Below are positions 10,359 to 34,941 of a stretch of DNA of 34,941 nt, piece by piece. This DNA is from a virus. Its lineage: Duplodnaviria > Heunggongvirae > Uroviricota > Caudoviricetes. The stretch lies in IMG/VR virus record IMGVR_UViG_2681813316_000026. One strand, given 5' to 3'. The notes under the pieces were generated by a model. The model was given only the letters and a program-made list of their open reading frames with translations. It had not been told where the DNA came from and searched no databases. The position numbers were made by a program, and so were the translations under genes. Position 1 is the first letter of the stretch; each line of letters begins with the position of its first letter.

Positions 10359-11854
10359 TATGCAGACTCCTCTGAATACTGAAGACGGAACTGGTTAACC
10401 ACGGCAAAGACACGCAACTGGTTAACATAGTCAGGCGGGAACAGCGTGTTCAGGCGGTTCGGATCGCTGGCATCACGCTCCACAACCAGGTACTGCTTAA
10501 ACAGTTCGTAGTTTTCCACGATCCCCGCACGCTCAAGCTGACGGTAGGTTGCCAGCAGTTCCCCTTTGATCACCGCCGGTGTGACAATCGCCTGACCGGG
10601 ACCAAAGCGGGTACCGTCGCTGGCAAGCTTGTGACGCCCGTACTTACTGGTAATGACGGATTTCAGTTTGCGCAGCACATACGCGCTGGTATGCAGCGTC
10701 TCGCTGTCGAGGTAGCTGTTATCCGCAACACCGTAAGCGTTTTTCCTGTACGTGGTGACATCACGCTGAATGCGCAGCACCCCGCTTTCGACATACGCCG
10801 TTGCCACGCCATGAGACAGCAGGGTCTGTTGTTCGGTCATCGTGAACCGTTTCCCCTTCGGCGCAGGCAGCATCCCCACCAGCTCACCGGTCTGCGTGGG
10901 ACGTGCCGGATCGTTGCGAATAAACACCGCTGCGCGGGCGGTACGGCTTGCCGCCAGCTCGTCGGCAGGCGTCTGGGTCTCTTTTTCGTATCCCGCCAGG
11001 GTAATGTGCTGCTGGTTAAACTGGTCACCTGCGGTCACCAGTTCTGACAGCGTGCCGATCTTTGCCGTATACACATGACCATACAGCTGACGCGCATAGC
11101 TCCAGCGACCGCTGGTATCGTTCATCTCGGTCACCAGCGTGTTAACGGAGGCTGTGTCGTTGAACGGCAGGCCGATATAATCAAACGGCTCATCCGCCAT
11201 TGCAGCCACCGCGCCGGTGAGAACAGGAGCGCCCGTTCCGGCGGTACCCGTCGCCACGGCAATCTGTACGCCCGCTGGCAGCACTTCGCCCCCACCAAAG
11301 CCGTAGTAATTGAGGCTGACAGGAATTTCATTCCCGCAAAGCCCCTTATGACGCGCGGTCAGTGTGACCACGCCTGCCGAAGATGAGGCAGTAAACGGCA
11401 GGGTCGGAACGGCATTGATGGCATCCTGGATACTGCTGGCAATCGTCGCAACGTTATCGCCGTTGGTCACCGGTGCCTGCACGCGGGTACGTCCCACATA
11501 AACATTCACCGTGCCGGTTTCGGTTGCCGCGCCGGTCACCGTCAGCGTAACCGTTGCCGCCGCGCCCGTGGATTCAGGAACGGCAATCACATACAGCTCG
11601 CCAAACGGGTCGGTCTGGCGATAAGCCTCGACCATACGCGCCAGCTGACTTCCCGCACCACAAATCTGGCGTGCATAGTCTGCCGACGGCATCAGTACCA
11701 GACTGTTGGCAACAATCTCTGCACCGTTATTGGCATGACCAATCAGCAGCGATGCTCCGCTGTCCTGTGCAGTATTCGCCGCCTGATTATCCATTTCCGC
11801 ATAAAACAGCGGAACCAGCGTATTCGACGGAATGGTGTTAAAGCTTATCGTCAT
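10358..11854 (-). CDS. Tail sheath protein (contractile tail)
   Basis: 498-aa ORF with ATG at 11854, placed sheath-tube-chaperone-tape measure. Confidence 0.85.
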   Translation of the reverse strand: MTISFNTIPSNTLVPLFYAEMDNQAANTAQDSGASLLIGHANNGAEIVANSLVLMPSADYARQICGAGSQLARMVEAYRQTDPFGELYVIAVPESTGAAATVTLTVTGAATETGTVNVYVGRTRVQAPVTNGDNVATIASSIQDAINAVPTLPFTASSSAGVVTLTARHKGLCGNEIPVSLNYYGFGGGEVLPAGVQIAVATGTAGTGAPVLTGAVAAMADEPFDYIGLPFNDTASVNTLVTEMNDTSGRWSYARQLYGHVYTAKIGTLSELVTAGDQFNQQHITLAGYEKETQTPADELAASRTARAAVFIRNDPARPTQTGELVGMLPAPKGKRFTMTEQQTLLSHGVATAYVESGVLRIQRDVTTYRKNAYGVADNSYLDSETLHTSAYVLRKLKSVITSKYGRHKLASDGTRFGPGQAIVTPAVIKGELLATYRQLERAGIVENYELFKQYLVVERDASDPNRLNTLFPPDYVNQLRVFAVVNQFRLQYSEESA

Positions 11855-23054: not shown

Positions 23055-23082
23055 ACAAAAAAACCCGCTCAATGGCGGGCTC
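23055..23082 (-). terminator. tR'-like rho-independent terminator downstream of the Q-like gene
   Basis: Minus-strand hairpin CCCGC-CATTGA-GCGGG followed by TTTTTTT, about 50 nt after the Q-like stop and just upstream of the moron RBS. Confidence 0.55.
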
Positions 23083-23131
23083 TTAATGTTGTGTTGCTCA
23101 GTTCGCTTTAACGTCCCGAGCCTACCACAAT

Positions 23132-23710
23132 TTAAGCACTTTCTTGCTCACTCTGCAACTTAAATCTGTCGCTATTTGTGCCGAATGCGTCACAAACTGG
23201 AGCGTACAGGATCGATTCTGCAAGACTTAGCCAAGTGTCAATGCGTCGACGACAGGTGATCAGCGGCCAGTCAGGATGTTTAGCCTGCAGTTCATTGGCC
23301 ATCTGCAACTTGCTCTTACGAAGACGATACCGGTCAACAATCACGCTATAGAGCGATCGGTAGTCATCATTCATCAGTACTGAAGCAATGACACCGTCCA
23401 CTAACAACCCTTCTTCATCTGAACAGAACGCCAGGCCGCTTTTATTTTTGCTGTTGAGAATTTCACGCAGGTACGCTTCAAGTTCAGGCTTGGTGATACC
23501 CGCTATCTTCATCCGGCGTAGCGCTTCATTGATAGCTGTCTTGGTGATTTTCCCGGATGCCAGAAGCTGGTTAAACATGTTTCCACCACTACCACCGCCG
23601 ATATAAGACCAGCGGCCCCACATGCGCAACTTGCCTTGTATCCAGATACTTTCCAGAGTACGAAGGCGAACCATTTCACCTGATTTGCCAACTTCAGAAG
23701 GATTAATCAT
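23132..23710 (-). CDS. Putative late-gene antiterminator (Q-like)
   Basis: 192-aa ORF, last gene of the nin-like block and immediately upstream of a terminator and the lysis genes. Assigned mainly by position. Confidence 0.45.
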   Translation of the reverse strand: MINPSEVGKSGEMVRLRTLESIWIQGKLRMWGRWSYIGGGSGGNMFNQLLASGKITKTAINEALRRMKIAGITKPELEAYLREILNSKNKSGLAFCSDEEGLLVDGVIASVLMNDDYRSLYSVIVDRYRLRKSKLQMANELQAKHPDWPLITCRRRIDTWLSLAESILYAPVCDAFGTNSDRFKLQSEQESA

Positions 23711-23724
23711 TTAGCATTCTCCAC

Positions 23725-24720
23725 TTACGCCAGTACGCCTATTGCCAGCGCACGATCGATAAAACGAAATATCAGCTCCAGCTGGGAGCCATACTTCTCT
23801 TCAAATGCCACGGTATCCGCATGCAGCTCGTCGTGATGCTTTCTGCACAAAGGCAACACAAAGAGGTCATGCGCTTTTGTTCCCATTCCACCCTGACCGT
23901 GACCTATCAGGTGGTGGGGATCATCAGCAGGCTTTCCACAACATGCACACGGCTGTGTCTTAACCCAGCGCGTGTACTTTTCATTAACCCAGCGGCGACG
24001 TTTTGGGCGTAACATAAAAGACTCCGGCGACTCCGGATCCACTTTCAGCGCCAGCACCTTTTTCGCCTTATCATGGATGATGCTGGTGGCAGGAATCGAA
24101 GGCACAAGGTCACTTTCCCGGGTGACAGACGGCACAACAGGCTTCGGTAATCTCAGTGCCTTACGGGCTGCACTTTCCGGTAAGGCATCCGCCAGGTCAT
24201 TACGAATCAGCCACCAGCACAGTTCCGGCATTGTCACAACGTGACTGTCATCAAAACCGAGATCCCGACGCACAACAGACAACACCCAGCGGGCACAGTT
24301 ATCCGTTGCCATTGATTCCAGCCGTTCCGTGAACTGATCGCGCAGCTGGTTATCGCAGTGCCAGCACAGACGGATCGCGCCCGGCGCGTGTCGTATTGTG
24401 GTCATGTTCTCGCTGTGCCAGTCGGAATGAGGCCACTGACAGCCCTTTTCACGAAGTAACCAGCTTTCAAGACATTCCACGCCACCAGCACGACGGATCA
24501 CTGCCTCATTGCAGAACACGGCCCGAACGGCAGGATCATCCGCCAGCGGTTGTGATGCCGCGGGAACGGCACCACTGGCGAAAGATGAATAACGTTCCGG
24601 CTCAGGCTCCAGCAGGACACGCCCCTGCATAAACAGGGGCATCAGCTCTGAACTGGGTCTGAACAATACGATCCCCATACGCGGGGCTATTTCAGGGGTC
24701 AGTAGTGCTCTCACGGTCAC
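23725..24720 (-). CDS. DUF968-family protein (YdfU-like)
   Basis: C-terminal cysteine/histidine-rich segment QPCACCGKPADDPHHLIGHG...CRKHHDELH, typical of lambdoid nin regions. Confidence 0.55.
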   Translation of the reverse strand: MTVRALLTPEIAPRMGIVLFRPSSELMPLFMQGRVLLEPEPERYSSFASGAVPAASQPLADDPAVRAVFCNEAVIRRAGGVECLESWLLREKGCQWPHSDWHSENMTTIRHAPGAIRLCWHCDNQLRDQFTERLESMATDNCARWVLSVVRRDLGFDDSHVVTMPELCWWLIRNDLADALPESAARKALRLPKPVVPSVTRESDLVPSIPATSIIHDKAKKVLALKVDPESPESFMLRPKRRRWVNEKYTRWVKTQPCACCGKPADDPHHLIGHGQGGMGTKAHDLFVLPLCRKHHDELHADTVAFEEKYGSQLELIFRFIDRALAIGVLA

Positions 24721-24721
24721 C

Positions 24722-25519
24722 TCAATGAACGGTATCGAGCAGCTTTAACAGCTCAGGGAATCGGGATTCGAAGAAATGCGGCTGCGTCTCGCGCGGATTT
24801 GCGGGACTGGTGATATTCTTGCCGAACATGCAGCCTTTCGCTGTCAGCGACCAGAATTTTTTGATGTTGTTAATCGCGGTACGGCTGTATCGTTCGCGCT
24901 GCTCGACGATCCCCAGCTTCACCATCTGGTGATATGCCTGATTAGCTGTCAGGCGGATACCATACTGCTTCAGCAGTGCACTCAGTGACAGCGTGGGGCG
25001 GCTTGAGCCATCAGGCGCGTCAGCAGGAGCATCAATGGCATAGCGCGGTGCCAGATTCGGTAAGCCAACAGCCTCCTGGAGTTTCTGACAGGCCCCAAGC
25101 ACAGATGAGTTAGACAGATTTAACTCCCGACGCATAAAGTCCAGCAGAATCACACCAGCCTGCATCTTGTCAGCAGCCTGCCCGGATAATTTTTCCGGTA
25201 TGCTGGTTACCATGTCAAAAGTACGGATCACCTTCAGATGGAATGACGGGCTAATCCACATTGCATAGGCATACACCAGTTCCTTGCAGACATACGTTCC
25301 CTGGTTATTTCCACCACGAATGACATTAACTGGCGCTATATTGACCGAGTTGCAAATCTGCAACTCGCTTATTAAGCGTTCAGTTTGCTCATTGCGGAGC
25401 CAGAATGCGGGCTTATGCTTATCCAGAGAACCAGCAGCCCTGTGCAGATCGTTCAGGCTGTAACGACCATAAGCATCACGACGAACTTCAATACCATCAA
25501 TGACCATCAGATTATTCAT
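24722..25519 (-). CDS. KilA-N domain protein (antirepressor-like)
   Basis: Probable start is the ATG at 25519 (MNNLMVIDGIEVR) with an AGGAG ribosome-binding site. N-terminal region resembles the KilA-N domain. Confidence 0.65.
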   Translation of the reverse strand: MNNLMVIDGIEVRRDAYGRYSLNDLHRAAGSLDKHKPAFWLRNEQTERLISELQICNSVNIAPVNVIRGGNNQGTYVCKELVYAYAMWISPSFHLKVIRTFDMVTSIPEKLSGQAADKMQAGVILLDFMRRELNLSNSSVLGACQKLQEAVGLPNLAPRYAIDAPADAPDGSSRPTLSLSALLKQYGIRLTANQAYHQMVKLGIVEQRERYSRTAINNIKKFWSLTAKGCMFGKNITSPANPRETQPHFFESRFPELLKLLDTVH

Positions 25520-25538
25520 ACTTCGTTTCTCCTCTTGA

Positions 25539-25928
25539 TCAGGCGGCTGCACCCGCCGTTTTCTCGTACTTACTGATAGTGATCTCGACCTTCCCTTCCG
25601 GGATAACCGGTCCCCACTCCACCAGCATTCTTTTCACCTGACTGTCGTCCTCCCACACACCCGCGTGGGTCAGGGCGTCAAACAGCGCCTTGTTATAGTT
25701 GTCCAGATCGCGGATCCGGTTATCCGGAGGAAACAACACGATCTCCACTGAAGCAGGTGCCGACGTTGGTTTCGGCAGACGACGTAACTGCTCAACTATT
25801 GCTGCGCACGCCGCGCTCTGGAATTTTCGCCCCGCCGCGCTTATCAGGCTCTTACCAGCAAACGCCCCTTTGTTGGGGTGTCGCCAGTACGTGTTCACGC
25901 TGGGCGGAAAAGGCAGGATCAGCTTCAT
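25539..25928 (-). CDS. rusA: Holliday-junction resolvase RusA
   Basis: 129-aa ORF starting MKLILPFPPSVNTYWRH with acidic residues at RusA-typical positions. Confidence 0.8.
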   Translation of the reverse strand: MKLILPFPPSVNTYWRHPNKGAFAGKSLISAAGRKFQSAACAAIVEQLRRLPKPTSAPASVEIVLFPPDNRIRDLDNYNKALFDALTHAGVWEDDSQVKRMLVEWGPVIPEGKVEITISKYEKTAGAAA

Positions 25929-26251
25929 ACTTTCAGGTCCCTCTCATGTAACCAGTGGGTTGCACGCAGCCTTGCGTTTTCCTCACCGGCAAGCAGTGCG
26001 CGGATAATCCCGACCGCCTCGCTGTCGTCGTCCTTCACCGCGGTATGAAGCGTTATCCCCCGGGCCACGCCACGCTTTATCGTGATGACGCCTTTTTTCT
26101 CCAGTGCGCGAAGATGCTCCACCGCTGCATTCACCGAACGGTATCCCAGCATGGTTGCCACCTCCTGATTGGTTGGCGGGAAGCCACGTTCTTTCTGATA
26201 AGAAATCAGCATATCCAGCACCTGCTGCTGGCATTGAGTTAACGTCGTCAT
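25925..26251 (-). CDS. LexA-like winged-helix DNA-binding protein lacking the S24 peptidase domain
   Basis: 108 aa. Residues about 5-70 resemble the LexA N-terminal DNA-binding domain. No catalytic domain follows. Confidence 0.55.
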   Translation of the reverse strand: MTTLTQCQQQVLDMLISYQKERGFPPTNQEVATMLGYRSVNAAVEHLRALEKKGVITIKRGVARGITLHTAVKDDDSEAVGIIRALLAGEENARLRATHWLHERDLKV

Positions 26252-26901
26252 GCCGCCATCTCCCTGACCAGTTTTTCCGCCTGCTGGCGAACCTGCGCCA
26301 GAAACGCCTCACCACATGCCTCAAGTTCATCGCGCCCGATGTAGCTGATTGCCGGTCCCTTCCAGGTCTTGTCAAAAACAGCAATAGCACCAGCGAAAAA
26401 AGCTCCTGTCGGTACCTGCTTCTCGTCTTTCGGGATAAACCAGACAGGCAGTTCAAAACCAATACGCCCGCGAATAAAAGCAATATGATCTGCATCTTCC
26501 GGCCACCACACTTCGCTGGTGGCAGCTTTGATCAGGAAAACATAGCGCCCGCCCTTATCACGCATGGCACTGGCATGTTTCATGATGTAACGCATGCCGG
26601 TGATGTATTGCCCCTCATGCTGACTGGCGCGGCTGTATGGGGGATTACCAAAGGCAGCACCTTTAAGCTCCGCAAGACGTTCTGACCAGTCATGCGCCAG
26701 CGCGTTGTCTTCCGCCGTGTAATACGCGGCACATTTGGCGTTATCACCGTCAGTGAACAGATCCAGAACAAACGGACCAAACAAGGTGTTAATTCCCCAG
26801 AAAATGTTGTCCGGCGTGCGCCACTGATCGCCCACTTCCTTCAGTTCATGGGCTGGTTTGTTCCGCAGTTCCACCAGCGCCTGGCAATATTTATTACTCA
26901 T
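26248..26901 (-). CDS. Phage N6-adenine DNA methyltransferase (Dam-like)
   Basis: NPPYS catalytic motif. Probable start ATG at 26901 overlaps the upstream stop (TAATG). Confidence 0.75.
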   Translation of the reverse strand: MSNKYCQALVELRNKPAHELKEVGDQWRTPDNIFWGINTLFGPFVLDLFTDGDNAKCAAYYTAEDNALAHDWSERLAELKGAAFGNPPYSRASQHEGQYITGMRYIMKHASAMRDKGGRYVFLIKAATSEVWWPEDADHIAFIRGRIGFELPVWFIPKDEKQVPTGAFFAGAIAVFDKTWKGPAISYIGRDELEACGEAFLAQVRQQAEKLVREMAA

Positions 26902-27389
26902 TAAGCCCCCACGTAATTCCCTGACAGATACCACTCTTCACCCGATGCAGCGCGCTTGCTGCTTTTCCGTAAGCACCGCTCACGACGCGCCAGAAAATTG
27001 TTTCGTTCTGGCTGGGAGTGGCTTTCACGGAATGCCGCCATCCACACGGTTGCAGCACGACGGTATAAGCCCCTGGACTCCAGTTCTTCCGCCTGGCGGG
27101 TCAGGCACAAAATCACACGGGGATCGTTAGTGCCGACATAGAAATTGCGCACAGGTCTGGTTTCACGAACTGGTTGTGGTTCCGGTTCCTGCGCTCTCTC
27201 AGTCAGGCGCGGGAAATGTCTGCGTGTATCTCCTTCACAACGGTGAGCCACACGCCCACTCTGACGTAACTTGCTTGCTGACTGCAGAACGCGCTGCCGT
27301 GAGTAACCGGCAAAAGCATCCGCAATATCTCCGGAAGTACAGCCCGGATGGGCTTCAATGAATTTCTGAACGTCATTCAAAAGACTCAT
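26901..27389 (-). CDS. Hypothetical protein in the replication module
   Basis: Probable start ATG at 27389 (MSLLNDVQKFIEAHPG). Overlaps the 3' end of the initiator gene. Confidence 0.4.
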   Translation of the reverse strand: MSLLNDVQKFIEAHPGCTSGDIADAFAGYSRQRVLQSASKLRQSGRVAHRCEGDTRRHFPRLTERAQEPEPQPVRETRPVRNFYVGTNDPRVILCLTRQAEELESRGLYRRAATVWMAAFRESHSQPERNNFLARRERCLRKSSKRAASGEEWYLSGNYVGA

Positions 27390-28332
27390 GCTCACCCCTG
27401 AATCCTGCCGGGATCTGGCTGTAGTCCACGTTGTCGTAACTGGCTTTGAAGTACGGGTCTTCGCGTTTTTCGGTGTACGTGCTGACGGACGGCGATAAGC
27501 GCAGGGAAAGCTCATCCCATTTTTCCCGCAGCTTCGACGGGCTGAGCACGTTACGGCACCAGAACGGATCGCGACTGACGCGGCTGTACATCTCGCAGAT
27601 TTGTTTATGAGTACGACCATCCTGCACACACATCAGGCGAATTTCGTTTGCCCAGGCTGTCCAGTTCGGTTCTTTGGGACGAACCACCTCGCCGTCACAT
27701 TCGGCGGCCTGCTCGTACAGGGCGATGATTTTTTTCCAGAGCCACTGTGCGCAGGTCAAATCATCCTGCGTTCCCCACTGGCGCTTTTTAGGGCTGAATA
27801 CAACCGCATCAGGATGGCGAGTTAAAAACTCCTGTTCAGCCGTCTGCGTGTCCGGTTGCGAAGCGTCCGGACGAGAAGTTTTTTTATCTGACGGATCATG
27901 TTTTGATTTTACTGACGGATCCCCGCCAGATTCTGACGGGTGAAAACCCGCTTTTTTGCCAGATTTCGACGCATCAAATTTTGACGGGTCAGATTTTGAT
28001 GCGTCAGATTTTGACGGGTCAGAATCTGACAGTTGAGAAAATGCCGCTGCCTGAAGCTTCGCAACGTTAAGCTGATAAACATTCGACGCATTGCGGTTAC
28101 CCTGGCGACGCGCCTTACGCGTTAACCAGCCTTCTGCTTCCAGCCGTGCGATAGCCGTTCTGACGGTACTCATTCCCGCGCCAATCTGGCGGGCAATGGT
28201 TTCAATTGATGGCCAGCACACACCTTCGTCATTACTGAAATCAGCCAGGCGGGCCATAATTGCCACGCTGGATAATTTCATGCCTGATGCAGCGCAACCA
28301 TCCCATACATAGCCGGTTAATTTAGTGCTCAT
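27373..28332 (-). CDS. Replication initiation protein (lambda O-like) carrying the origin iterons
   Basis: N-terminal winged-helix-like region, a central low-complexity SDxSKSD repeat encoded by DNA iterons, and a Trp-rich C-terminal domain. Confidence 0.6.
   Translation of the reverse strand: MSTKLTGYVWDGCAASGMKLSSVAIMARLADFSNDEGVCWPSIETIARQIGAGMSTVRTAIARLEAEGWLTRKARRQGNRNASNVYQLNVAKLQAAAFSQLSDSDPSKSDASKSDPSKFDASKSGKKAGFHPSESGGDPSVKSKHDPSDKKTSRPDASQPDTQTAEQEFLTRHPDAVVFSPKKRQWGTQDDLTCAQWLWKKIIALYEQAAECDGEVVRPKEPNWTAWANEIRLMCVQDGRTHKQICEMYSRVSRDPFWCRNVLSPSKLREKWDELSLRLSPSVSTYTEKREDPYFKASYDNVDYSQIPAGFRGEHESFE
27880..28040. repeat. Iteron array: putative origin of replication inside the initiator gene
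   Basis: At least five direct repeats of a TGACGG(G/A)T-containing unit interleaved with the palindrome TGACGCATCA. Confidence 0.5.
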
Positions 28333-29481: not shown

Positions 29482-29553
29482 ATATGTACCTCCGGTGTAC
29501 ATATTACATGATTGAAATGAACCTTCACGATACTTGTACCTTAACGGTACAAG
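29482..29553. promoter_or_regulatory. Right operator region between cro and cI
   Basis: Two perfect palindromes sharing the TGTACC half-site: ATATGTAC-N7-GTACATAT (29482-29504) and CTTGTACC-N5-GGTACAAG (29533-29553). Confidence 0.55.
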
Positions 29554-29568
29554 GGTTTTAATTTCGTT

Positions 29569-30243
29569 ATGAAAACAATCCATGACATCCGGCGGTCTAA
29601 CGCCAGAAAACTGAGAGATGGTGTTGGCGGGAATTCTTCCTTTGCCACTATGATTGATCGCGAGCCAACCCAGACCAGCAGGTTTATGGGAGATGGTGCT
29701 ACTAAAAATATCGGTGACAGCATGGCACGACACATCGAAAAATGTTTCGACCTGCCTGTCGGATGGCTCGATCAAGAACACCAGACAACGAACATCACAA
29801 AAAAACCTGATGTTTCAATCACTAATAAACAAATCACATTAGTCCCTGTCATATCATGGGTACAGGCCGGAGCATGGAAAGAAGTTGGATATTCTGAGGT
29901 TGATTTGAGCACAGCAGAAACGTATCCCTGCCCTGTACCCTGTGGGGAAATGACTTATATCTTGCGGGTGATAGGTGATTCAATGATTGATGAGTACCGC
30001 CCGGGAGACATGATTTTTGTCGATCCTGAAGTACCTGCCTGCCACGGTGACGACGTTATTGCATTGATGCACGATACAGGTGAAACCACCTTCAAAAGGT
30101 TGATAGAAGATGGGACACAGCGTTATCTCAAAGCGTTAAACCCAAACTGGCCTGAGCCTTACATTAAGATCAACGGTAATTGCTCTATAATTGGTACAGT
30201 GATTTTCTCAGGAAAACCAAGAAGATACAAAATCAAAGCCTAA
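29569..30243 (+). CDS. CI-type repressor (HTH domain plus S24 LexA-like autopeptidase domain)
   Basis: 224 aa. C-terminal domain with the GDSM serine motif and a downstream lysine. Divergent from the cro-like gene. Confidence 0.85.
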   Translation: MKTIHDIRRSNARKLRDGVGGNSSFATMIDREPTQTSRFMGDGATKNIGDSMARHIEKCFDLPVGWLDQEHQTTNITKKPDVSITNKQITLVPVISWVQAGAWKEVGYSEVDLSTAETYPCPVPCGEMTYILRVIGDSMIDEYRPGDMIFVDPEVPACHGDDVIALMHDTGETTFKRLIEDGTQRYLKALNPNWPEPYIKINGNCSIIGTVIFSGKPRRYKIKA

Positions 30244-30282: not shown

Positions 30283-30316
30283 TTGACAATGTACCTTTGA
30301 GATACATAATGTACCC
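30283..30316 (+). promoter_or_regulatory. Leftward-operon promoter analogue (PL-like) with operator half-sites
   Basis: TTGACA at 30283-30288 and CATAAT at 30305-30310. Overlaps ATGTACC-N5-GATACAT and a further ATGTACC repeat related to the right-operator half-sites. Confidence 0.45.
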
Positions 30317-31126: not shown

Positions 31127-31395
31127 ATTTCACTGTCAGCTTTTTCCCGTAATTGGGATTTTTTAACTTCAGCAATAGCTATTAATTCCTTTTTGGTCGG
31201 CTGAGGAATATCTATCAGTGCTGGTTTTCCATTCAGTGTTCCAATCTGTTTTCCTGGTGGAATATCCATAAATAACTTTTTATGTTCTTCCTCACTGACT
31301 ATTACACCATCATCAGGCCACAGACCTGATGCCTCAAATTTTTCTTTCTCCGATATGGGGAAAAAGCCATTTGCTTTAGCGCTCCATACGTACAT
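31127..31395 (-). pseudogene. Truncated tail fibre assembly gene (5' 269 bp only)
   Basis: Near-identical to 1220-1488. Homology stops at 31127; the track ORF 30865-31395 continues into unrelated sequence with a non-protein-like tail. Confidence 0.65.
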
Positions 31396-31396
31396 A

Positions 31397-31732
31397 TCAA
31401 TACCCCACCGCTATAATGTCCACATTAAATCCCCCGGGACCTGCCTGCCAGATGCTGGCCCCTGTTAATGATTTTGTTTGATGAACAACCGCCACATTTG
31501 CTGGCGATAGTGTTTCAGTTGTTACAGTACCGATATCATTCCAGTTAATTGAGATGGAATAGTTCGTTGTTGTAAACGACCGGGGGAAAGTTATGTGTCT
31601 TGCATTGGTGCCAACAGGAAATCCAAGATAAACACGCTGAATTATCATTCCTCCAGGTAACATAACCCAGTTAGCACCTTCTCCAAAACCAACGTTTATG
31701 AAAATGCAGAAATAACGAGCAAATGGCATCAT
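31397..31732 (-). CDS. Tail-fibre variable C-terminal segment, duplicate of 1490-1785, joined to the pin-proximal flank
   Basis: Residues after the GFGEG crossover junction are identical to the expressed fibre at 1490-1785. The first 13 codons derive from the pin flank. Confidence 0.6.
   Translation of the reverse strand: MMPFARYFCIFINVGFGEGANWVMLPGGMIIQRVYLGFPVGTNARHITFPRSFTTTNYSISINWNDIGTVTTETLSPANVAVVHQTKSLTGASIWQAGPGGFNVDIIAVGY
31679..31704. repeat. Recombinant (hybrid) crossover site
   Basis: TTCTCCAAAACCAACGTTTATGAAAA: left half identical to the site at 1772-1797, right half to the inverted site at 26-51, i.e. the product expected from invertase-mediated exchange. Confidence 0.6.
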
Positions 31733-31758
31733 TCCTGCTTTTGTCAGAGGGATCCACT

Positions 31759-32313
31759 ATGCTTATTGGCTATGTACGCGTATCAACAAATGACCAGAAC
31801 ACCGATCTACAACGTAATGCGTTGAACTGTGCAGGATGTGAGCTGATTTTTGAAGACAAGATAAGCGGTACAAAGTCCGACAGACCAGGACTGAAAAAGC
31901 TGCTCAGGACATTATCGGCAGGTGACACGCTGGTGGTCTGGAAACTGGACCGACTGGGACGCAGTATGCGGCATCTTGTCGTGCTGGTGGAGGAGTTGCG
32001 CGAACGAGGCATCAACTTTCGTAGTCTGACGGATTCAATTGATACCAGTACCCCAATGGGGCGCTTTTTCTTTCATGTGATGGGTGCCCTGGCTGAAATG
32101 GAGCGTGAACTGATTGTTGAACGAACAAAAGCTGGACTGGAAGCAGCTCGCGCACAGGGACGAATTGGTGGACGTCGCCCCAAACTTACACCAGAACAAT
32201 GGGAGCAGGCTGGACGATTAATTGCATCAGGCGTTCCTCGCCAGAAGGTGGCGATCATCTATGATGTTGGTATATCGACACTGTATAAGAAGTTTCCGGT
32301 CGGAGATAAATGA
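31759..32313 (+). CDS. pin: Serine DNA invertase of the Pin/Gin/Hin family
   Basis: Starts MLIGYVRVSTNDQNTDLQRNAL (catalytic serine in the YVRVS motif), with a C-terminal HTH. About 184 aa, GAGGGA ribosome-binding site, directly adjacent to the crossover site. Confidence 0.9.
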   Translation: MLIGYVRVSTNDQNTDLQRNALNCAGCELIFEDKISGTKSDRPGLKKLLRTLSAGDTLVVWKLDRLGRSMRHLVVLVEELRERGINFRSLTDSIDTSTPMGRFFFHVMGALAEMERELIVERTKAGLEAARAQGRIGGRRPKLTPEQWEQAGRLIASGVPRQKVAIIYDVGISTLYKKFPVGDK

Positions 32314-32373: not shown

Positions 32374-33243
<870 letters not shown>

Positions 33244-33325
33244 CTAACCCTTTGAATTTACATAGCGCAAAAAGATACCTTTCCTCATAATGTGAGCTAA
33301 TTTTATGTTTCGTTTGATGATCGGG

Positions 33326-33387
33326 TCGGTCTCGAAAACCGGAGTAGGGGCAACTCTACCGGGGGTTCAAATCCCCCTCTCTCCGCC
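33326..33387 (+). other. 3' fragment (about 62 nt) of tRNA-Ser(CGA), putative attachment-site core
   Basis: Matches, from memory, the anticodon stem-loop (CTCGAAA, anticodon CGA), long variable arm, T-arm and acceptor 3' end (GGTTCAAATCC...CCGCCA) of E. coli serU. The 5' acceptor/D-arm is absent. Confidence 0.6.
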
Positions 33388-33961
33388 ACTTTATCAATGA
33401 CTTATCTCCCGACTTCCCGCCTTGCTTTTCCTAAACAGAACAATCGTAGAATATTCTTGAAGGGTTAGATCGTCACTGTTTTCTGTTCGATACTGTGACA
33501 TTCAGCACTTGATTCGCTATGGATCTGACAGGAAGATTTCGAGCGAAAATCTGCAGTTATTCAGTCGTTTTCTTATCGGTCACCATTATTCTTTTAGACA
33601 TTGATCCTACAAAGCTGCCGCAAAGTTGGTGGTGGGAACTGAAGTTGCGTAGAGAAGGGGTCAATACCCGGAGGCAAACATGGGCTGGCAAAAGTGTAGC
33701 GGTATTAGGCGCAGCTATTTAGCCTAGTTATGTTTTATGAAAACTTGATATCATATAAGTGTCTTACTTATTGGCTGTAAATAAGTTTTTCCTAAGGAAT
33801 TGTTTCTTGAATATCATTTGTAACTGTAACGGAATTTATAATCCTTTGCTTTATTGTTACGGTATTTTTTATCACACCCTATTTTTAGTGGTTTTTTATA
33901 CTGAAGTTTGGCAAAGTGAACTTTATATACATATACTTCATCCTGGTTTCAGTTAAATTGG

Positions 33962-34714
33962 GTGGATGATATGGCAACTACATGTTCAGTTATATTGATT
34001 TTGGAGTCCTTTGATGTTTATTTCGGAAAAGAGAGTGTGTTTCTGGAGAGAGGTTCATCTGTACTTGTCGACTCTAGCTCTAGAGATTTTTTCCTGACAT
34101 ATCCTGAAAGAGTGATAGTGGCGGATTTTGGCGCTGAGTTTATTAGTCGCTATTTGAAAGCTAATAACTTAAGGGATATTTCTGATTGTAGGGAATATCC
34201 ATCTTATTTAAAAATAAACTTTGCTGACTTCAGTTTAATTAAAGGATTAATTAGTTGGGCTAATCACTGTGCTGAATACATAGAAATTTTTGATGAGTCT
34301 ATTGCTTTTACATGTCTCTCTGCATTTTCTTCTGAAAAACAATTTGGAGTATTTCTGTTTGGATGTTTGAAAAGCACAGGGGCTAAAGTTAAAACGATTA
34401 TTCATACGGATTTATCTGCACCATGGCGTCTTAAGGATATATCATCAAGATTATATCTCAGCGAAAGTTTACTAAAGAGGAAATTGAAAGAAGAGGGGGT
34501 ATCATTCAGTAAGATCATACTTGATGAGAGGATGCAAATGGCTGAATATTTACTCAGCACTCGTTGTTATCCTATTAGTAAAGTAGCTAAGGTCTGTGGT
34601 TATGCCAGTGTCTCATACTTTACTTATGTATTTAGACGTTATTTTGGTGTTTCTCCAAGTCAATACTCTCAGAGGAGTTCAGAAAGTAAAATTCTTACTC
34701 ACCAGGGAATCTGA
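33962..34714 (+). CDS. AraC-family transcriptional regulator (AppY/GadX-like architecture)
   Basis: 250 aa with a C-terminal AraC-type HTH (ISKVAKVCGYASVSYFTYVFRRYFGVSPSQY). Strongly AT-rich gene and upstream region. Confidence 0.7.
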   Translation: MDDMATTCSVILILESFDVYFGKESVFLERGSSVLVDSSSRDFFLTYPERVIVADFGAEFISRYLKANNLRDISDCREYPSYLKINFADFSLIKGLISWANHCAEYIEIFDESIAFTCLSAFSSEKQFGVFLFGCLKSTGAKVKTIIHTDLSAPWRLKDISSRLYLSESLLKRKLKEEGVSFSKIILDERMQMAEYLLSTRCYPISKVAKVCGYASVSYFTYVFRRYFGVSPSQYSQRSSESKILTHQGI

Positions 34715-34755: not shown

Positions 34756-34941
34756 TTAAGTTAACGTTACCCGCTGACGTCGATATTCTCGCAGAGAGCG
34801 ATAACCCAACGCACTGTGCGGATGGTTTTCATTGTAATGTTCGATCGCCACTGCAAGATTATGCAATGCCGTTCTTACATTCGGTTTCGGCATGAACGCG
34901 ATGTAGTCTTCCTTCATCGTTTTCACGAACCTTTCTGCCAT
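34756..34941 (-). mobile_element. IS-element transposase fragment (C-terminal end of a DDE integrase-core domain)
   Basis: 61-aa ORF ending ...[18 protein letters not shown], resembling the C-terminus of IS3-type transposases. The rest of the transposase is not in the window. Confidence 0.5.

Follow-up and report, generated by a model that had tools for sequence, protein, structure and literature searches.

A prophage-encoded LexA-type DNA-binding protein with a conserved helical tail and no peptidase domain

The window considered here is the whole of a 34,941-nucleotide stretch of DNA, IMG/VR virus record IMGVR_UViG_2681813316_000026, which holds a prophage assigned to the Caudoviricetes. 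Between the genes for a Dam-type methyltransferase and the RusA resolvase, it carries a gene for a 108-amino-acid product that combines a LexA-type winged helix-turn-helix with a helical tail and lacks the S24 peptidase domain (Table 1). With high confidence, we regard this product, henceforth termed the LexA-like protein, as a functional, RecA-insensitive DNA-binding protein of the LexA type that has its own conserved helical tail and is encoded in a lytic early operon.

Domain, fold and tail of the LexA-like protein

The N-terminal part of the protein fills the PF01726 (LexA_DNA_bind) profile from position 1 to 65 of 65 (E=2.9e-19; 69 bits against a gathering cutoff of 23.7), matches the DNA-binding domain of Escherichia coli LexA (1lea) at E=6e-16 (phmmer, PDB) and aligns with E. 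coli LexA over 90 amino acids at 43% identity (BLASTP, E=1e-21). The PHROG 362 profile extends over the entire product, with residues 1-108 on positions 1-106 of 106 (E=3.8e-59). An AlphaFold2 model from 21 family sequences has a mean predicted local distance difference test (pLDDT) score of 84 and comprises three helices (residues 6-22, 28-35 and 40-52) and a two-stranded wing (56-58 and 66-68). Its top Foldseek match is DNA-bound E. coli LexA (3jso_B), with a root-mean-square deviation (rmsd) of 1.0 Å over 68 columns at 50% identity. A sequence-only reading of this DNA had aligned the product by eye with the LexA N-terminal winged helix, and profile and model both bear this out, the modelling having returned the LexA fold rather than a different one. 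The same reading also proved right in that the product stops short of any S24 domain, with no PF00717 match before its end at residue 108 and RusA as the next open reading frame (ORF), and in that the CI repressor of the prophage retains its own. With the TIGR00498 lexA equivalog the protein scores 70.6 bits, under the NCBI curated cutoff of 110.95; as judged from its sequence, it falls outside the LexA repressor proper, having kept the winged helix-turn-helix and lost both the S24 peptidase and dimerisation domain, with its Ser119/Lys156 dyad, and the cleavage site. Its nearest full-length relative is a bona fide LexA of 205 amino acids (P0146), 58% identical across the N-terminal domain, and descent from the N-terminal domain of a gammaproteobacterial LexA appears to be the best explanation of its origin. 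A role in a defence system was also considered and rejected, PADLOC having given a weak generic winged helix-turn-helix match and nothing else.

The residues through which E. coli LexA contacts DNA are Ser39, Asn41, Ala42, Glu44 and Glu45 (PMC3091678). The window protein keeps four of these five, Ser39, Asn41, Ala42 and Glu45, and has Val in place of Glu44. For comparison across phages, we collected 226 copies of the gene from viral contigs, which reduce to 130 unique sequences, most of 106-111 amino acids; the family alignment holds the 114 unique sequences of 95-125 amino acids. In this alignment S39, N41, A43, K53, G54, R64, G65 and I66 never vary, 111 sequences have A42, and position 45 is occupied by E (59), D (33), A (21) or T (1). 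Val or Ala at position 40 is found in full-length LexAs as well. Because Ser39, Asn41, Ala42 and Glu45 are kept together with the wing, the protein would be expected to bind CTGT-type palindromes. It looks like a CTGT-type binder with one systematic contact change, and its preferred site need not be the SOS box itself.

A low-confidence linker (residues 69-74) leads from this head to a helical hairpin, in which the family alignment reveals conservation of V80, I82, I83, L86, L87, A93, R94, A97, W100 and L101, and of the turn glycine G89 in 101 of the 114 sequences. These hydrophobic residues exceed the buried surface that a lone two-helix hairpin needs, and for this reason we infer that two subunits pair through it, probably in a four-helix bundle, and that it would thus serve as a dimerisation module that substitutes for the missing S24 domain. 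The weaker Foldseek matches that follow LexA are dimeric winged helix-turn-helix regulators with C-terminal helices, namely MepR, MntR and the BlaI-like 2g9w. Several related proteins (P0130, P0131, P0148, P0150 and others) contain tandem LexA_DNA_bind domains without S24 in one chain and, by their domain content, appear to be single-chain pseudo-dimers of the LexA head; the arrangement in P0130 and P0131 argues that a pair of such domains works without the peptidase.

Alignments by HMMER and BLASTP, which reach LexA residue 86, place Ala88-Gly89 of the tail (in RALLA-GE) on the LexA cleavage bond Ala84-Gly85 (in RVAA-GE). This match would fit a cleavage-site decoy, i.e., a tail that docks in RecA* or in the catalytic cleft of LexA or CI and is cut in trans or blocks autocleavage. 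Residue 88, however, is Ala in only 16 of the 114 family sequences and otherwise S, E, N or T, Gly89 acts as a helix cap, and the segment lies at the end of a helix predicted with high confidence, unlike the strand-loop of the LexA cleavage region. Because Ala is so rarely kept and the segment is helical, we do not regard Ala88-Gly89 as a real cleavage site and rejected the mimic, which is very improbable. The proposal of the sequence-only reading that the protein cannot be cleaved is strengthened by the same data, as well as by the lack of a catalytic domain.

Table 1. Positions (window coordinates), strand and basis of assignment of the LexA-like gene, its parts and neighbouring features.
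Feature	Position	Strand	Basis
LexA-like gene, 108 amino acids, winged helix-turn-helix plus helical tail, without S24	25925..26251	minus	ATG-start ORF, PF01726, PHROG 362
Shine-Dalgarno sequence GGGAG, 8 nt 5' of the LexA-like ATG, within the dam 3' end	26260..26264	minus	sequence reading
LexA-type winged helix-turn-helix, residues 1-68	26048..26251	minus	AlphaFold2 block pLDDT 80-90; Foldseek 3jso_B
Recognition helix VNAAVEHLRALEK (LexA: PNAAEEHLKALAR), residues 40-52	26096..26134	minus	LexA alignments
Wing KGVITIKRGVARGI, residues 53-66	26054..26095	minus	AlphaFold2 model, family alignment
Helical hairpin, residues 74-103 (helix 74-88, Gly89 turn, helix 93-103)	25943..26032	minus	AlphaFold2 block pLDDT ~88-90, family conservation
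Phage Dam-type N6-adenine methyltransferase, 5' of the LexA-like gene	26248..26934	minus	PF05869 E=1.1e-45; PADLOC MTase_II residues 12-228
RusA Holliday-junction resolvase, 3' of the LexA-like gene	25539..25928	minus	PF05866
KilA-N protein	24722-25552	minus	domain annotation
DUF968/HNH-like protein	23725-24720	minus	domain annotation
DUF1133 Q-like antiterminator	23132-23710	minus	domain annotation
Terminator after the Q-like gene	23059-23084		prediction
Replication protein	27373-28332	minus	domain annotation
Prophage CI repressor with S24 peptidase domain	29569..30243	plus	PF00717 E=1.5e-26

Family, operon context and expression timing

The family comprises four subfamilies, whose identity to the window protein is 42-52%. 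In a set of 46 alleles of the E. coli type, the ratio of nonsynonymous to synonymous substitution rates (dN/dS, Nei-Gojobori) is 0.08, with 0.016 in the N-terminal domain, where the recognition helix SVNAAVEHL is unchanging, and 0.23 in the tail; two further subfamilies yield 0.20 and 0.24, and tail values in the subfamilies tested range from 0.19 to 0.31. These ratios indicate that the gene is under purifying selection and functional, tail included. The absence of the C-terminal two thirds of LexA could be taken to mark a decaying, non-functional remnant of a captured lexA. This reading is hardly credible: selection is evident in three subfamilies and extends to the tail, length is stable in most of the 130 unique sequences, the gene has a good ribosome-binding site, and 2233 of 5426 complete E. 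coli genomes (~41%) carry it. On the strength of purifying selection and conservation, we rejected the pseudogene interpretation.

The gene is already publicly annotated and is among the commonest accessory genes of E. coli prophages. The copy in NZ_CP029973.1 is 100% identical in nucleotide sequence and is listed in RefSeq as a 'LexA family transcriptional regulator' (WP_000210155.1). Copies with 96-98% identity in protein to the window gene are found in SfV (orf42), SfII and mEp460 (mEp460_046), the latter two labelled 'LexA DNA binding domain protein', and in Stx2a and Stx2c phages ('repressor, lexA family'); further labels are 'transcriptional repressor' for PHROG 362 and 'LexA-like protein' in several recent phage genomes. 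All of these annotations refer to the same gene and are sequence-based labels. A comparative study of Stx phages lists a PF01726-only family in 15 phages, and full-text literature searches aimed at functional work found none on the LexA-like family. In terms of annotation, the gene belongs to the ordinary accessory genes of the nin region and is labelled correctly. A tail-less subfamily of ~78 amino acids (P0134, P0141; loci L084-L091), with the recognition helix SPNAAASHL or SPNAAATHL, fills the same slot 5' of rusA, and its loci carry a weak box-like palindrome, CACTGAACAAACATCCAGCA (score 15.3), at the rusA end.

The LexA-like gene is embedded in a series of abutting or overlapping minus-strand genes in the order replication, PerC-like, dam, LexA-like, rusA, kilA-N, DUF968 and Q-like. 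The dam TGA overlaps the LexA-like ATG in an ATGA at 26248-26251, and the LexA-like TGA overlaps the rusA ATG in the same manner at 25925-25928. The probable true start of dam is an ATG near 26901, where the sequence shows a TAATG junction. On the minus strand, no sigma-70-like promoter was predicted 5' of the LexA-like gene. The SfV annotation includes a weak dam promoter, whose -35 element TTGCGC is degraded to TGGCGC in the window; a promoter of its own for the LexA-like gene was rejected on these grounds. Since the gene is coupled by ATGA overlaps in the operon and has no predicted 5' promoter, it is probably expressed as a delayed-early gene from the early-right promoter in lytic growth and not in the lysogen. 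For the same reasons, it is unlikely that the protein acts in the uninduced lysogen or sets the level of spontaneous induction, and any action on SOS boxes would follow induction.

Of 147 diverged loci, 145 have rusA directly 3' of the LexA-like gene and 139 contain DUF968; at the same loci the LexA-like protein is 42-52% identical between subfamilies, compared with 70-80% for RusA and 63-68% for DUF968. Such linkage, together with the overlapping start and stop codons on both sides of the gene, would suit a DNA-binding accessory of RusA, the DUF968/HNH-like protein and Dam that tethers or targets these enzymes in replication and recombination. This possibility draws further on P0158, a 240-amino-acid protein in which a LexA DNA-binding domain is joined directly to a C-terminal domain of the DUF968/HNH-like kind, the latter closely resembling the C-terminus of the window DUF968 protein encoded two genes 3'. 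The fusion may hint at a functional link in the Rosetta-stone sense, or it may be an artefact of deletion in a decaying prophage; it is a single example. The linkage itself may reflect simple inheritance of a module, and among 69 loci selected solely by identical RusA, 64 carry the LexA-like gene and five have rusA without it. As the fold and the conserved residues fit a sequence-specific operator binder, we consider the accessory role improbable.

SOS boxes and operators in this prophage and its sisters

The sequence-only reading had suggested a search of the window for LexA-box-like palindromes, and consensus and matrix scans found none above chance. The window has no perfect CTGT-N8-ACAG, and one-mismatch SOS boxes number 18 against 11.25 expected. 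With a LexA weight matrix of 20 bp derived from E. coli sites, the window reaches a best score of 13.7, shuffled sequence a maximum of 11.6 +/- 2.2; the top matches fall in the genes for tail-fibre assembly that are duplicated and in an AraC-like gene of the host beyond the attachment site. The prophage thus carries no SOS box above chance, and for this reason an SOS-type target would be located on the host chromosome or on other prophages. A search for repeated palindromes in the prophage (arms of 4-6 nt, spacers of 0-12) returned only codon-bias words and a 300-bp duplication, no candidate operator was found downstream of the Q-like gene, and intergenic DNA of the late region shows the terminator only. 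The segments 29486-29553 and 30283-30315, which bear no relation to the SOS box, are probably CI/Cro operators and follow the pattern TTGTACC-N-GGTACAA: a perfect palindrome, CTTGTACCTTAACGGTACAAG, occupies 29533-29553, and TGTAC repeats related to it occur both at 29486-29504 and 3' of cI.

SOS boxes with very high matrix scores (22-27) recur at three places in sister phages that carry the LexA-like gene. The first, TACTGTATGTAAAAACAGTA (score 25-27), lies in mEp460-type cI, in the part that codes for the linker between the helix-turn-helix and S24 domains (L001, i.e., mEp460, 11245-11264; L002:444; L045:1043; L115:430). It is retained in the cI of L308, which is only 71% identical, and is absent from the window cI allele; with a putative antisense -35 element TTGACG 8 nt away, it may be a LexA-controlled element inside cI. 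The second, CACTGTTCATAAATACAGTA (score 21.7), occupies a short intergenic stretch between rusA and kilA-N in 10-11 IMG/VR loci (L012:4765-4784) and suggests a LexA-controlled promoter for the antirepressor-like KilA-N gene and for Q further downstream. The window has no box of this type, and kilA-N directly abuts rusA there; we rejected conservation of a site 3' of rusA, as an SOS box is found at this place in those 10-11 loci only. The third, CACTGTTTATTTTTACAGTA (score 22.3), belongs to mEp460-like phages (L001:2194-2213; L009:7921) and overlaps the initial codons of a DNA methylase gene situated in the late region, downstream of Q.

Co-occurrence of these boxes with the LexA-like gene is high at first sight: the gene is present in 10 of 10 distinct INPHARED phages with the box-bearing cI allele and in 16 of 17 suitable IMG/VR contigs with the box inside cI. 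Of the 69 loci selected by RusA, 27 have an upstream box and 42 lack one; the gene is present in 24 of the former and in 40 of the latter. A strong box within 7 kb is missing from 29 of the 64 LexA-like loci. We therefore rejected a functional link between the gene and the sister-phage boxes, the base rate being a sufficient explanation. The boxes, which are probably host-LexA sites, lend no specific support to the LexA-like protein as their ligand.

Several features concern the ends of the prophage. A 300-bp perfect direct repeat (1220-1519 and 31127-31426) and a 57-bp inverted repeat of 98% identity (1-57 and 31673-31729) both consist of tail-fibre and tail-fibre-assembly sequence, and the copy near 31 kb adjoins an ORF for a Hin/Pin-type DNA invertase (31723-32313). 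Beyond cI, the prophage has no N, recombination or integrase genes, and it looks rearranged or fused with a remnant of a second element. At 33317-33389, ARAGORN reports no complete tRNA; the segment is a tRNA 3' fragment with a long variable arm, ending CTCTCCGCCA, that presumably matches serU, tRNA-Ser(CGA), and is likely an attachment-site duplicate marking the prophage end. Between this fragment and the invertase, a 274-residue minus-strand ORF (32374-33198) shows a GIY-YIG-like N-terminal motif, YVGKGKGNR, and downstream of the fragment lie a low-GC gene for an AraC-type regulator (33962-34714) and the end of an insertion sequence transposase gene (34756-34941, minus strand).

Target, role and known systems

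Our preferred reading, to which we give a probability of about 0.4, is that the LexA-like protein forms a RecA-insensitive dimer through its tail, binds SOS-box-like CTGT palindromes and represses them once host LexA is gone. The suggestion of the sequence-only reading, that such a protein could bind LexA boxes and uncouple SOS targets from RecA control, is plausible, subject to the loss of Glu44, the lack of an SOS box in this prophage and an expression that probably follows induction. The protein would be produced with the delayed-early genes after induction or infection, rather than in the quiescent lysogen, and as it is not cleavable, the dimer could occupy its sites after destruction of host LexA. 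In this way, promoters under SOS control, whether in the host chromosome or in co-resident prophages, would be re-silenced during lytic growth, and the lack of an operator candidate in the prophage itself fits targets elsewhere. That a LexA head can bind without its peptidase has some background: the N-terminal fragment of LexA is said to keep residual operator binding and to dimerise on DNA (Kim and Little, in 1992), and cells reportedly need ClpXP to clear this fragment (Neher et al., in 2003).

A number of observations weigh against this reading. Position 44 is never Glu in the 114 family sequences (A 41, V 40, T 32, F 1), while the full-length LexAs recovered by the same search keep Glu44. 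Position 45 swaps between E and A in close alleles and is S or T in the tail-less subfamily, a variability that would be unexpected if a fixed host SOS box were the target. The frequency of the gene with and without SOS boxes in sister phages gives no help, dimerisation by the tail and the timing of expression are both steps that we infer, and the searched literature offers no experimental datum on the family. In addition, the sole characterised phage-borne truncated LexA, gp6 of GIL01, has shifted to a site of its own and acts as an activator, which by analogy could apply here as well.

The gp6 precedent leads to another account, in which the protein is a phage-specific transcription factor, i.e., a drifted LexA head that recognises its own operator and regulates a phage promoter, for instance near the late region. 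The LexA-like protein diverges faster than RusA and DUF968 at the same loci, as is typical of specificity determinants in mosaic phages, and its recognition helices (SVNAAVEHL, SPNAAAEHV, SPNAAVAHV, SPNAATDML, SPNAAASHL and SANGAFEHI) differ between subfamilies at positions 44 to 46, with Glu44 always lost. Against this account, the search of the prophage yielded no palindrome that is repeated or conserved, the gene has no non-coding DNA beside it to accommodate a linked site, the late intergenic DNA holds just the terminator, and Ser39, Asn41 and Ala42 are LexA-like throughout the family. We consider a phage-specific factor of this kind somewhat unlikely.

Returning to the reading of a tail-paired dimer on SOS-box-like palindromes, its most far-reaching form is that of an uncleavable LexA mimic, made after induction, that re-occupies the host SOS boxes themselves once LexA is destroyed and so provides the phage with an 'SOS off' switch that RecA cannot reverse. 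This form is unlikely in our view. If true, the switch would silence recA, error-prone polymerases, SOS toxins and the LexA-controlled antirepressors of rival prophages during replication. If the protein binds SOS boxes, an induced prophage would override the host DNA-damage response through a gene that Shiga-toxin phages and roughly two fifths of the complete E. coli genomes carry, with possible effects on mutagenesis, cross-induction of other prophages and toxin output. To the existing annotations, the present analysis adds the conserved helical tail, purifying selection, the absence of a real cleavage site, the constant loss of Glu44 and the absence of a cognate SOS box from the prophage.

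Three kinds of known system can be set beside the LexA-like protein. GIL01 gp6, from a tectivirus of Bacillus thuringiensis, is a truncated LexA homologue of 66 residues; it recognises a palindrome of its own and acts as activator of the late promoter P3 (PMC6182141). Like the window protein, which is encoded between the replication genes and the Q-like gene, it is a LexA DNA-binding domain without the catalytic domain, located among the early genes of a temperate phage. BLASTP returned no alignment between the two at E<=100, which argues that they are independent captures from different host LexA lineages. Moreover, gp6 has no C-terminal tail, and its site and activator role are demonstrated, unlike those of the LexA-like protein, which is known from sequence. 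The BlaI/MecI-like 2g9w, the MarR-type MepR and MntR/DtxR share the general plan of an N-terminal winged helix followed by helices that would, in the window protein too, pair two subunits, as weak, partial matches (E ~1e-2, high rmsd) with no sequence relationship. E. coli LexA (1lea, 3jso) has the same winged helix-turn-helix fold, with ~48-51% identity over residues 1-70 and a shared Arg64-Gly65 in the wing. Compared with it, the LexA-like protein has no S24 domain and no conserved Ala-Gly, leaving no response to RecA* possible, and has Glu44 replaced; it carries instead a 35-residue helical hairpin after the linker and is encoded in the lytic operon of a phage.

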